Assembly: GCA_036401755.1 (NCBI GenBank)
Contig: DASWUD010000282.1
Span: 1-41,219, forward strand
DNA from: Gammaproteobacteria bacterium
GTDB lineage: Bacteria > Pseudomonadota > Gammaproteobacteria > Thiohalomonadales > Thiohalomonadaceae
DNA: 41,219 bases
Direction: 5' to 3'
In this document: one piece after another, positions 7,775 through 10,824 of the stretch
How the letters are laid out: every line of letters starts with the position of its first letter
How positions within the stretch are numbered: position 1 is the stretch's first letter
Position numbers and translations under genes: made by a program
The notes under the pieces: generated by a model
What the model was told of the DNA's origin: nothing
The model's database searches: none
The model's input: only the letters and a program-made list of their open reading frames with translations

Positions 7775-9079
7775 TTAGTCGGCTTTGGCCGGAGCGACCA
7801 GATGGGGGGCGGCCAGCTCCCGATAGCCGCGCCCCATGCGCCAAGCCAGCGTGATCCAGAAGAGGCCGATGGTCATGTTGATCATGGCGAATTGATTGAC
7901 CGACAGGCCAAACTGGGTACCGCCGAAGATCACCGCGGCGTGCAACAGATCCCCGAAGCGCCAGAAGAATGTTTCGATGGCGGTCTTGCCATCGTATTTG
8001 GCGTTCGCCGACACCGGCAGGAACAGCGCATGGCGCGTGGTCTGCTGGATGGAGTAGTCGGTGCTGTTCTCCATGATCTTGATGAGGCGTACCACGGTAA
8101 AGATCGGAAAGAAGGCAATCATCGTGTACCCGATGGTGGCGATCACCGGCAGAATCATCAGCGCCCAGTGGACACCGACATAACGAAACAGCCGCGATAC
8201 CAGGAACGCCTGGAACAGCAGGCCGATAGCGTTCACCCACATGAAAAAATCCGAGTAGATCTCGCCGATGGCAACCCCCTTGGCAACCCCCGCGGCCACC
8301 GCGATCTCGGCCTGCTCCACCACCATTTTGGCGAAGATGAATTCACCCGTGGAGTTGATGAAGTTGAGCAGCACCACAAAGAGGGCCACCAGACGCAGAT
8401 AGGGACTACTCATCACCACGGCGAAGCCCCCGCCGAGACTCACTGGCTCCTTCACCCCATTGGGCTGCGGCATCACTGCGTGCATGCCGGAACGCTTGTA
8501 GATGACCGTGGTCAGCATCAGCAAAATGGCGGCGACCAACAACATGCCGTGACTGCCCACCAGCGGAAAGAGCTGGTGGGCACATTTCGAACCAAACACG
8601 GCCCCCAGCGAGCCGCCCAGCGCGATGATGGCAAAAACGCGCTCGCCTGCGCTAACGGTATGGATATCGGCCGCGAGCGCCCAGAACTGGGCCAGTTGGC
8701 CAACACTGAAGATCCCCAGCCAGATGAAAAAGAGCGTGCCGATGGGCACACCGTTGATACTGAGCAGGTAGAAGATCAGTAGGTTGGCCACAAAGAAGCT
8801 GGTGATCGACCGATAGATCCGTTCACCCACCCGGTTGCGCATGAAATAGCTGTAGAGCGGCACCGCCACCAGTAGCACCACGGCCTGCATGGCCAGCGCG
8901 TAGCTGCGCAGTTCTGGCGTGCCGTGTTCGAGGATGAGTGCCTCGCGCACCGGCTTGAGCAGGTAGTAACCAAACAGGATGACGAAGACGCGCGCCGCCA
9001 ACAGCAAGGTAAGAGCGACTTCATCGGGACGGACATCGGCAAACAGGCCGAGCCAGCGTGACAGCAGTTTTCTCGTCAT
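7775..9079 (-). CDS. ATP:ADP antiporter (AAA/TLC) family nucleotide transporter homologue (MFS-like, about 12 TM)
   Basis: TLC-family-like signatures are present: YYLLKPVREALIL near the N-terminus, QFWALAADIHTVSAGERVFAIIALGGSLGAVFGS (compare FWxFANxxxxxxxAKRFYxLxGxGxNxG), and IMENSTDYSIQQTTRHALFLPVSANAKYDGKTAIETFFWRFGD. I chose the start at Met51 of the track ORF (ATG 9077-9079) because it forms an ATGA overlap with the CotH stop (9076-9078). The upstream 50 codons lie inside the CotH gene. Confidence 0.7.
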   Translation of the reverse strand: MTRKLLSRWLGLFADVRPDEVALTLLLAARVFVILFGYYLLKPVREALILEHGTPELRSYALAMQAVVLLVAVPLYSYFMRNRVGERIYRSITSFFVANLLIFYLLSINGVPIGTLFFIWLGIFSVGQLAQFWALAADIHTVSAGERVFAIIALGGSLGAVFGSKCAHQLFPLVGSHGMLLVAAILLMLTTVIYKRSGMHAVMPQPNGVKEPVSLGGGFAVVMSSPYLRLVALFVVLLNFINSTGEFIFAKMVVEQAEIAVAAGVAKGVAIGEIYSDFFMWVNAIGLLFQAFLVSRLFRYVGVHWALMILPVIATIGYTMIAFFPIFTVVRLIKIMENSTDYSIQQTTRHALFLPVSANAKYDGKTAIETFFWRFGDLLHAAVIFGGTQFGLSVNQFAMINMTIGLFWITLAWRMGRGYRELAAPHLVAPAKAD

Positions 9080-10824
9080 TTGCCCACCCCAAGGCGTGAA
9101 TCGGGGAGACAGGCAACAAAGCGCTGCGTCTGCCCGGGAGAGATCGTCAAGCCATCGGTTGTCAGGATATTGGCGAGCGCATTGACCCTGGTCGGTAGCC
9201 GCTGCCAGACCGCGCCCTCCTGACGCCATAAGCTCAACGCCGCTTCATCCTTCACCCGGCCCAACTCCTGGCGCTGCGAGTTCTCCTGGAAATACTCCAG
9301 TGTCAGGCTCCCTTGCAGCGTACCTTCCGGCGAGTTTGCGGTGACGATCCAGCTGCGCTGGATACAACTCTCCGCCGCCACCCCGGGTGGCACTGCCCGG
9401 GGGGCATGGGCAAACTCCACTTCGGCCAGAAGCTCCACGGCACGCGCCCTGTCGTCAGGCCGAAACTGCGCCAGCAGATAGCCATAGCTGTCTGCCACCA
9501 CTACCACCTCACCGCGACCGATGGCGCTTGCATGCAGGGTGGCGGGATAGGGCGGAGGGGGCGGCGCCAGCTCCGGTCGCCAGTAGGCGCGCTCGGGATC
9601 CCAGGCCGTGGAGTTGAGCAGTATCTTCTCCAGATAGGCAGTGCGCGCCACGATGTAGTGGTCGAGGGCGTCAATACTCTCCTGAAAACTTGCCTGCCTA
9701 TTGCGCAGGCGGGGATCGCGCCGCACCTCTTCCAACAGCTCGTCGTGCATGGCAGCGATCCGCTCTCTGATCGCCACGCTCTCAAAAAAGCCGAAGCCGC
9801 CGCGGTTCGCCTCCTGCTGGATCCCGAGCAGGTGGGAAAGCCTGGCCAGGAAGCGCGCCTTGAGGCGCGGATTGCGCAGCAGCTTCTCCTTCAACGGGCT
9901 ATAGGCGCCGAGCTCGGGGGGATAAAAATATTGAAAGTTGTCGTTATAGACATTGTTGGGATAGTCGAGAAACGGATCGAAGTTCCTGCCGTAGGTGAGA
10001 TCGTAGTCCCAGGGAACGACGCTCCACTTGTTCGTTGCGCGGCTACGGTAGAGAAAATAGTTTTTGTTGTAGGTGTCGCCATCGCTGGTAAGCACATTGA
10101 CGGCGAGCCAGTTGAGCACTGAATCGACATCGAAGTTCTGCTCCATGAAGCGATCGAATTGGTCGATGGGCGTGGCATCAATTCCCTCCACCAGTGTCGC
10201 GAGCGCAGAGAAATCCTCAGCCGGCGGCGTGAATTTCAACCAGCAATCTGTCAATGCGCCACCGCGTGACTTGTCGAGGTCACCACAGAAGGTGCTGTCG
10301 TTGGGATGAAAGAGCTGGCCGTCGCGCCCGAGTCCGTAGCGCTCGAACATTGCTGTTTCTATCCACTCGATGCGCAGGTAGATCCCCTGTGGCTGGCCGT
10401 TGATATAAACGCGCTCATAGCTGACATTTGGGGCGGCCATTCCCAAAGAATGAAACATCTGCCAGGTCATCCAGTTGCGTAGCAGGGTCGGGTCGGTCGC
10501 CATGGCATTCAGGGAGATACGCGAACTCCCCTGCCATTTGTCGCCTTTGCCGAGCTTGATGGAGAAGGAGCGTTTGTCCATCATGCGCGAGGAGCTGCCC
10601 AGGATTTTGATCCGCCCCTTGTGGCGCGTTTCACCATCGATGAGGGTCACCGCGAAGGAGGATTTGTCATAACGGTCCTTGCGCACCAACACTTGGGCAT
10701 CGGTGGAATCCATTTGCAGATATATCTCGCCGATGGGTACGTGCTCGGCGGCGAATAGCGAACAGCTGGCGAGCAGTAGTGCGATAACGGGAACAGTCGA
10801 GCGCAGGCGGAGGTTCAAACACAT
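9076..10824 (-). CDS. CotH-family atypical (Fam20-like) kinase, predicted lipoprotein
   Basis: Lipobox LLASC. CotH-type sequence is present: KRSFSIKLGK, LNAMATDPTLLRNWMTWQMF, YINGQPQGIYLRIEWIE, DGDTYNKNYFLYR and WSVVPWDYDLTYGRNF (the WDxD metal-binding region). The last ~160 aa follow a Pro-rich linker (PPPPPYP). Confidence 0.8.
   Translation of the reverse strand: MCLNLRLRSTVPVIALLLASCSLFAAEHVPIGEIYLQMDSTDAQVLVRKDRYDKSSFAVTLIDGETRHKGRIKILGSSSRMMDKRSFSIKLGKGDKWQGSSRISLNAMATDPTLLRNWMTWQMFHSLGMAAPNVSYERVYINGQPQGIYLRIEWIETAMFERYGLGRDGQLFHPNDSTFCGDLDKSRGGALTDCWLKFTPPAEDFSALATLVEGIDATPIDQFDRFMEQNFDVDSVLNWLAVNVLTSDGDTYNKNYFLYRSRATNKWSVVPWDYDLTYGRNFDPFLDYPNNVYNDNFQYFYPPELGAYSPLKEKLLRNPRLKARFLARLSHLLGIQQEANRGGFGFFESVAIRERIAAMHDELLEEVRRDPRLRNRQASFQESIDALDHYIVARTAYLEKILLNSTAWDPERAYWRPELAPPPPPYPATLHASAIGRGEVVVVADSYGYLLAQFRPDDRARAVELLAEVEFAHAPRAVPPGVAAESCIQRSWIVTANSPEGTLQGSLTLEYFQENSQRQELGRVKDEAALSLWRQEGAVWQRLPTRVNALANILTTDGLTISPGQTQRFVACLPDSRLGVGK

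Follow-up and report, generated by a model that had tools for sequence, protein, structure and literature searches.

The whole stretch of 41,219 nt that was analyzed (hereafter the window), comprising positions 1 to 41,219 of contig DASWUD010000282.1 from a Gammaproteobacteria bacterium of the family Thiohalomonadaceae (accession number GCA_036401755.1), harbored on its minus strand a tightly packed seven-gene cassette with a cyclic di-GMP (c-di-GMP)-type polysaccharide synthase. The final two genes of this cassette encoded a predicted exported kinase of the CotH family and a distant transporter of the TLC/NTT family. The transporter belonged to one clade of NTT-fold carriers whose genes shared operons with those of two distinct exported families of kinase fold, CotH and a family designated c4, the latter representing an independent replicate of the linkage. 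The first-pass annotation of the window had proposed that the transporter supplies ATP to CotH; we regard it as an evenly balanced question whether exported kinases are fueled by the transporter through a swap of ATP from the cytoplasm for ADP from the periplasm. The cassette corresponded to sfz1–sfz6 (stalk formation in Zetaproteobacteria) of Koeksoy et al. 2021, which had the same architecture and the CotH-containing sfz6 as its last gene (PMC8250860); the Sfz names are used below. The two genes under study were as follows:

9076..10824, minus strand: exported CotH-family atypical kinase (predicted), 582 amino acids (aa), Pfam CotH, orthologous to the C-terminal part of Sfz6
7775..9079, minus strand: distant TLC/NTT-family transporter, 434 aa, about 12 transmembrane helices, last cassette gene

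The CotH-family protein and the NTT-fold transporter

The plus-strand sequence TCAT at 9076–9079 read ATGA on the minus strand, the transporter start codon ATG occupying 9079–9077 and the CotH stop codon TGA occupying 9078–9076; the overlap reported by the first-pass annotation at this site was thereby confirmed, on the minus strand. An upstream ATG at 9229 was rejected as the transporter start in favor of 9079 (giving 434 aa), because the homologues had 434–447 aa and aligned from residue 1. The exact 4-nt overlap recurred in some relatives, and others displayed gaps of 4–170 nt.

The CotH open reading frame (ORF) matched Pfam PF08757 with 187.6 bits (cutoff 23.8), covering profile positions 1–322 of 322, and matched the Bacillus cereus CotH structure 5JD9 with E = 4e-30. 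D250/N255 (in a D-x4-N loop) and D273 (in PWDYD) aligned to D224/N229 and D247 of 5JD9, representing the catalytic Asp/Asn and the metal-binding Asp, respectively; the presence of the catalytic residues, which the first-pass annotation had named as a check on its proposal, was thus observed. The 23-residue spacing between D250 and D273 equaled that between D228 and D251 in Bacillus subtilis CotH, an equivalence of numbering taken from motif and spacing, and the B. subtilis protein is inactivated by the substitutions D228Q and D251A. The N-terminus MCLNLRLRSTVPVIALLLASCSLFAAEH displayed a basic n-region, a hydrophobic core, and the lipobox L-A-S-C at residues 18–21 after the signal peptide, in agreement with the lipoprotein signal (LLASC) read earlier; its residue +2 was Ser, and by the Asp+2 rule we take the protein to carry no inner-membrane retention signal. 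Among 120 listed members of the window CotH orthologue group, 103 kept both catalytic motifs and 113 had an N-terminal hydrophobic signal, with a lipobox in only 17 of these 113 signal-bearing members; export was therefore a conserved feature of CotH and lipidation was not. The window CotH was predicted to be both catalytically intact and exported.

The transporter matched Pfam TLC with 40.4 bits (cutoff 21) over residues 334–416 only (last 83 residues), and the three motifs quoted for it in the first-pass annotation were all present in the translation of 7775–9079. Since a single-sequence phmmer search of the transporter against PDB sequences gave no match, the comparison was extended to a profile of the clade and to predicted structure. 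The profile, built from 25 sequences, matched two NTT1 cryo-electron microscopy entries (E = 1e-18 and 1e-13) at nearly full length, and the profile alignment had the basic/signature positions LKxxRE, FW, GxRxF, and KxxGKxAID in common with NTT1, the charged/signature residues K42, R45, R147, K361, K365, and R374 of the transporter being aligned. In the AlphaFold2 (AF2) model [predicted local distance difference test (pLDDT) 86, predicted template modeling score (pTM) 0.86], the top five Foldseek matches were all NTT1 entries with template modeling (TM)-scores of 0.58–0.81, including ATP-bound AtNTT1 (0.81), ATP-bound Chlamydia pneumoniae NTT1 (0.77), and ADP/Pi-bound AtNTT1 (0.75); other transporters of the major facilitator superfamily (MFS) reached 0.55–0.69 at best. 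As modeled, the transporter is an NTT-fold carrier, and its relationship to TLC is judged real but distant. Roughly one in ten of the listed transporter homologues (P0056, P0066, P0067, P0069, P0071, P0081, P0085, P0087, P0102, P0103, and P0117) carried a He_PIG (PF05345) putative Ig domain at the C-terminus, which is odd on a polytopic carrier and hints at protein–protein contact.

Linkage of the transporter clade to two exported kinase-fold families

The clade alignment was searched against one genome per GTDB species, and the best 80 of 543 loci were kept. In 11 of these loci the transporter had 47% or more identity to that of the window; they came from Gammaproteobacteria and, within Desulfobulbales, from Desulfobulbaceae and Desulfurivibrionaceae, and all 11 contained the whole cassette with CotH directly upstream of the transporter; the other 69 (40–47% identity, mostly Acidobacteriota) contained no CotH. 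In a reciprocal look-up, eight CotH orthologues on long contigs were inspected, and four of them had a transporter nearby: (i) locus L086 (Nitrospinae) had a reordered cassette, in which CotH and the transporter were still adjacent; (ii) L091 likewise had the two genes adjacent; (iii) L092 had the cassette in two divergent units, one with the synthase and ManC and the other keeping Sfz5–CotH–transporter together beside Rce1-like and Phosphodiest genes; and (iv) L087 (Thiobacillus) had the transporter at the head of the cassette, not after CotH. The L087 transporter was called as two genes (L087:1333-2723; 210 aa and 253 aa), which could reflect a frameshift, pseudogenization, or misassembly. 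The CotH–transporter link is recurrent and survives rearrangement, and it is not obligatory in cis (four of the eight). The first-pass annotation had asked whether the two genes are linked neighbors across genomes; they were so in the 11 close transporter loci and in L086, L091, and L092, and were not so in the four CotH-anchored cassettes taken up below.

Clustering of the ORFs that flank the transporter in the 69 loci with no CotH gave c4, a family of about 535 aa, among the most frequent neighbors; an Omp85-family gene accompanied it in every case, and a secreted metallophosphoesterase often did so. This family had more than 4275 homologues, all annotated as hypothetical. Of its 120 listed members, 113 had a Sec-type signal and 107 kept both motifs HxDx[RK]xxN and [ILMV]D[FLV]G; the kinase-like motifs VKFD, HxDxRxxN...D, and IDFGS were invariant in the c4 alignments. 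Because the c4 sequence profile matched nothing in the PDB and Pfam gave no domain, with sub-threshold HipA-like matches only, the kinase assignment was based on motifs and a fold search. With the AF2 model of c4 (pLDDT 76, pTM 0.81), the best 25 Foldseek matches were all Fam20 entries (Caenorhabditis elegans Golgi casein kinase, Fam20C, and Fam20A; best E = 1e-5, probability 1.0 for the best matches), and most of the remaining listed matches were other kinases.

Linkage of c4 to the transporter was observed from both sides. Around the CotH-less transporters, c4 lay within 6 kb in 14 of the 69 loci, in several arrangements and phyla. The c4-side scan of metagenomes returned 80 loci, 41 of which gave a TLC-family match; among the 20 well-flanked loci (3 kb or more to either side), an orthologous transporter scoring 400 bits or higher was present in 13 and some TLC-family gene in 16. 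The transporter usually either followed c4 by 0–36 nt in the same orientation or lay 1–2.6 kb off on the other strand, and the usual order was Metallophos–Omp85–c4–transporter (one example operon being Metallophos–Omp85–c4–TLC), with no polysaccharide synthase in the c4 operons. An outer-membrane barrel gene was found just upstream of the kinase gene in both systems, namely Sfz5 (predicted barrel) with CotH and Omp85 with c4.

The adjacency might merely reflect shared regulation or the inheritance of one mobile cassette, in which case CotH would bind polysaccharide or serve as a scaffold with no catalytic role, and the transporter would have unrelated housekeeping duties. All CotH–transporter cases indeed fell within one cassette type, perhaps with a single origin and transfer, and neither the lipobox nor the exact overlap was conserved. 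Nevertheless, we consider this explanation very unlikely: the catalytic motifs were kept in most of the CotH orthologues (103/120), the pair outlasted rearrangement and splitting of the cassette, and an evolutionarily separate kinase family displayed the same linkage, the c4 replicate thus arguing against co-regulation or a single cassette.

Exported phosphoesterases were observed in both systems, Metallophos with Omp85–c4–transporter and Phosphodiest (PF01663) with Sfz5–CotH–transporter, the latter being a Phosphodiest/Sulfatase-type gene of the alkaline-phosphatase superfamily (L091:7072-7989 and L092:7148-8062); they may represent an activity opposing the kinases. Two further candidates from the transporter neighborhoods were set aside: (i) c11, a membrane Ser/Thr kinase that neighbored the transporter in 10 loci, was not accepted as another exported kinase, because six N-terminal helices and the positive-inside pattern indicated that its Pkinase domain is probably cytoplasmic; and (ii) c57 was kept as a lead only, having few, heterogeneous members, some with degenerate catalytic loops. 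The partner of c11 was a second, longer TLC/MFS-like paralogue (about 720–760 aa), usually beside the short transporter and the Omp85–c4 pair, and c11 and this paralogue were seen together in L029, L039, L041, L064, L066, L081:11012-14814, and many of L093-L172. The c57-type small proteins or domains near the transporter (L014:1642-3438, L058:3725-4318, and L062:8896-12136) gave sub-threshold matches to Fam20C, PI3_PI4_kinase, and HipA_2, and were fused or adjacent to secreted metallophosphatases, some with DRNxxN/IDH and others looking degenerate. In addition, a secreted NHL/phytase-like beta-propeller protein of about 600–660 aa, with an N-terminal domain assigned to no family, lay by the transporter in L076:8016-9905, L079, and L068, which belonged to different phyla.

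The proposed mechanism and its alternatives

In the proposed mechanism, CotH would be exported by Sec, lipid-anchored in the window genome, and would transfer phosphate from ATP on the far side of the inner membrane; the NTT-fold transporter, co-translated and placed in that membrane, would pass cytoplasmic ATP out and bring kinase-made ADP back in, with the net effect that phosphate alone would leave the cell and the adenylate would be retained. The likeliest target of CotH would be the nascent polymer, probably containing mannose, or else a matrix or envelope protein. ATP supply was chosen as the reading because both contexts shared an exported ATP-using fold beside a carrier whose nearest structural relatives bind ATP/ADP; a glycan target is plausible because Fam20B, of a related fold, is a glycan (xylose) kinase (PMC7948968), the operon has GH113, and its relatives have mannose-nucleotide genes. 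The substrate (ATP/ADP), the outward direction, the periplasm rather than the surface as the site, and the kinase target are all points that we infer. A phylogenetic survey found NTTs to be widespread in free-living bacteria with no assigned function (PMC5381601), and NTT carriers expressed in free-living Synechococcus release ATP when ADP is supplied outside (PMC11632070), a result that makes ATP export by this family feasible. We further put forward, tentatively and with somewhat less than even confidence, a widespread bacterial 'extracytoplasmic phosphorylation module' composed of an outer-membrane barrel, a Sec-exported Fam20/CotH-fold kinase, and an NTT-fold carrier for ATP export and ADP import, which would have been assembled at least twice: (i) with CotH in sfz-type operons and (ii) with c4 plus Omp85 in Acidobacteriota and other phyla.

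Several points weigh against the ATP-supply reading. At the family level, the transporter scored 29.9 bits against NCBIfam TIGR00769 (cutoff 387.2) and was just 16–17% identical to NTT1; the TLC/AAA-family assignment of the first-pass annotation is supported by the NTT fold, the profile match (E = 1e-18), and the Pfam TLC match (40.4 bits, last 83 residues only), as a distant membership far below the TIGR00769 cutoff. Characterized members of the TLC family include an NAD+ carrier and one member with no detectable nucleotide transport (PMC5381601), and PamNTT1, when purified and reconstituted, strongly prefers ATP import and has negligible ATP efflux, its exchange being insensitive to membrane potential (PMC1951785). 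At the linkage level, no transporter was found within 9 kb in four of the eight CotH-anchored cassettes (Beggiatoa alba, a Mariprofundales metagenome-assembled genome (MAG), and two related genomes), none was found in two of the three c4 contexts looked up singly, and stalk-forming Betaproteobacteria have no sfz5, sfz6, or antiporter (PMC8250860). The TM-scores between c4 and Fam20 were low (0.28–0.41), and c4 is therefore called kinase-like, on motifs and fold combined. Porins could also let periplasmic ATP escape. What became of the ATP-supply idea is mixed: it was strengthened by an exported and apparently intact CotH, the NTT fold, the conserved linkage, and the parallel with c4, and was weakened by the four cassettes with no transporter and by the import preference of PamNTT1.

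The divergence of the transporter from NTT1 also leaves room for another nucleotide-type metabolite as its substrate, such as a GDP-mannose-like nucleotide sugar, 3'-phosphoadenosine 5'-phosphosulfate (PAPS), NAD+, or a cyclic dinucleotide, exported or exchanged for use in modifying the polymer beyond the cytoplasm, with CotH being another modification or assembly enzyme of the operon. This would agree with characterized relatives that carry NAD+ and other nucleotides (PMC5381601), and with the mannose-nucleotide genes found by some cassettes (ManC in L092; phosphomannose isomerase, which adjoins the cassette in Zetaproteobacteria, PMC8250860). However, the same transporter clade was tightly linked to c4 in operons with no polysaccharide synthase, which argues against polysaccharide-specific donors; moreover, what both contexts shared was an exported protein of kinase fold, a fold that usually takes ATP as co-substrate, and the best fold matches of the transporter were ATP- or ADP-bound NTT1. 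We judge this alternative unlikely.

The PamNTT1 result (PMC1951785) bears equally on the direction of transport, import being the documented physiological direction of characterized bacterial NTTs. The transporter might then import ATP, ADP, or other nucleotides from the periplasm or the cell exterior for salvage, for example in biofilm, under co-regulation with matrix genes, and the exported kinases would be fed otherwise or would not be kinases in vivo; half of the CotH-anchored cassettes do with no adjacent transporter, and the nearby exported phosphoesterases could serve nucleotide salvage. Such a role would leave unexplained both the start/stop overlap with an exported kinase gene and the repeated cross-phylum linkage to two exported kinase families. 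NTTs do export ATP from cyanobacteria given external ADP (PMC11632070), and the hosts of the present transporters are free-living, so that the ATP gradient points outward. Salvage import is accordingly held to be quite improbable, and export of ATP in exchange for ADP was retained as the preferred reading.

The cassette, the sfz cluster, and known systems

The remaining cassette genes of the window, together with the two genes following the transporter, were as follows (all on the minus strand; identities are those from BLASTP against the PV-1 proteins):

16098..18086, minus strand: BcsB-like periplasmic subunit in the Sfz1 position, first cassette gene (Pfam BcsB 37.5 bits)
14157..16058, minus strand: polysaccharide synthase, a fusion of GT2 to a preceding c-di-GMP-binding domain of the MshEN type at the N-terminus, Sfz2 orthologue (59% identity, E = 0)
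12682..14160, minus strand: polytopic membrane protein, 492 aa, Sfz3 orthologue (40% identity over full length, E = 2e-108)
11673..12908, minus strand: GH113-family glycoside hydrolase, Sfz4 orthologue (45% identity, E = 9e-78; Pfam GH113 158.9 bits)
10831..11694, minus strand: signal-peptide protein, 287 aa, Sfz5 orthologue directly upstream of CotH (28% identity, E = 3e-13)
6800..7546, minus strand: secreted expansin EXLX1-family polysaccharide-binding protein, 228 nt downstream of the transporter (NCBIfam expansin_EXLX1 234.6 bits)
5513..6700, minus strand: CPBP/Rce1-like intramembrane protease-family membrane protein (Pfam Rce1-like 39.9 bits)

The PV-1 Sfz2–Sfz6 protein sequences were taken from the supplement of PMC8250860 and compared with the window proteins; their BLASTP matches, including that of the PV-1 Sfz6 C-terminus to the window CotH (36% identity, E = 5e-114), identified the window cassette as an sfz orthologue, with its genes in the sfz1–sfz6 order and sfz1 assigned by the BcsB-like gene in first position. 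By tblastn, the BcsB-like gene was placed identically in each of the 11 cassette loci. The synthase ORF matched Pfam Glyco_trans_2_3 (79 bits) and MshEN (31.6 bits) plus NCBIfam c-di-GMP_motif (59 bits), and the 492-aa membrane protein gave no match in Pfam and NCBIfam searches. The listed GH113 ORF was 5'-over-extended, as the Sfz4 alignment began at ORF residue 101; its true start is probably near 12719 (MKMVGAF...LLLAGC, with a lipobox), making the hydrolase probably a lipoprotein as well, and PV-1 Sfz4 also had a lipobox (LMTGC). The Sfz5 orthologue, whose sequence pattern suggests that it is probably an outer-membrane beta-barrel, adjoined CotH in 10 of the 11 cassette loci, and this adjacency was kept in the rearranged and split cassettes.

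The expansin and CPBP genes lay on the same strand, and it is uncertain whether they belong to the operon; they were rejected as members of the conserved unit, since in the 11 related cassette loci neither gene followed the transporter. In L092, however, the Sfz5–CotH–transporter unit also had an Rce1-like neighbor. A weak terminator-like site was located at 5429-5410, after the CPBP gene; the promoter and terminator scans were uninformative.

Koeksoy et al. 2021 recorded a conserved 'ATP-ADP antiporter' directly beside sfz6 and drew no functional tie between it and CotH, their work being a pan-genome correlation with no experiments (PMC8250860). The statement in the first-pass annotation that it knew of no described system of this kind consequently fails for the adjacency and, in the literature searched, stands for the functional link. 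Our literature search found no paper proposing a functional coupling of CotH and the antiporter, and likewise neither the pattern of an exported Fam20/CotH kinase with an outer-membrane barrel and an NTT carrier nor any annotation of c4. The window cassette adds a member to a cluster type already published, and the CotH–antiporter adjacency was likewise on record. Many carriers of the cassette were not iron oxidizers (Thiohalorhabdus, Beggiatoa, Nitrospinae, and Desulfobulbales).

The periplasm is generally assumed to be without ATP. Exported CotH-family and other kinase-fold proteins are common in bacteria, and a literature search found no described ATP supply route for exported bacterial kinases; this gap and the role of NTT/TLC proteins in free-living bacteria are jointly testable. 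If true, the ATP-supply reading would (i) establish that ATP reaches the bacterial cell envelope in a regulated way, (ii) predict that exopolysaccharides or envelope proteins are phosphorylated across many environmental lineages, (iii) give a biochemical handle on the sfz cluster proposed to build iron-oxidizer stalks, and (iv) assign a function to several thousand hypothetical proteins (the c4 family). The module, if true, would be a bacterial counterpart of the lumenal ATP supply to Golgi and endoplasmic reticulum (ER) kinases, would provide the first function for NTTs of free-living bacteria, and would imply a phosphorylated matrix polymer in sfz-type operons, possibly relevant to metal binding by stalks. 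Thiohalorhabdus methylotrophus had the CotH and transporter genes on one 449-kb contig and, being a named species, may be in culture and usable experimentally.

The comparison was finally applied to four known systems. First, the window cassette and the sfz cluster shared the gene organization BcsB-like protein, MshEN-GT2, membrane protein of about 500 aa, glycoside hydrolase, protein of about 300 aa, CotH, and then 'ATP-ADP antiporter', but the window came from another lineage, with Gammaproteobacteria MAGs as the closest loci, and its CotH had no long SH3-repeat N-terminus as in Sfz6. Second, the window CotH resembled Bacillus CotH (5JD9/5JDA) in its domain (E = 4e-30) and in conserving the Asp residues for catalysis and metal binding. 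The Bacillus enzyme has CotB and CotG as its substrates in spore-coat assembly, a process of the mother-cell interior with ready access to ATP, while the window CotH had an export signal and was located in a Gram-negative polysaccharide operon. Third, the transporter shared the fold (TM-score up to 0.81) and signature motifs with the NTT/TLC exchangers of Chlamydiae, Rickettsia, and plastids (PDB 9J3J-9J3O), but it was shorter (434 aa), had only about 16–17% identity, and fell below the NCBIfam cutoff; its host was free-living, and the proposed ATP-out direction would be the reverse of the parasites' use. Fourth, in eukaryotes the ER ATP carrier is of the SLC35 type, a family different from that of the present carrier; the following likeness is drawn as an analogy, with no shared ancestry of the system implied. 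ATP is imported into the ER (PMC9286291), and the secretory-pathway kinases Fam20B/C, like the exported proteins studied here, place a Fam20/CotH fold in a compartment topologically outside the cytosol, where a nucleotide carrier is needed.

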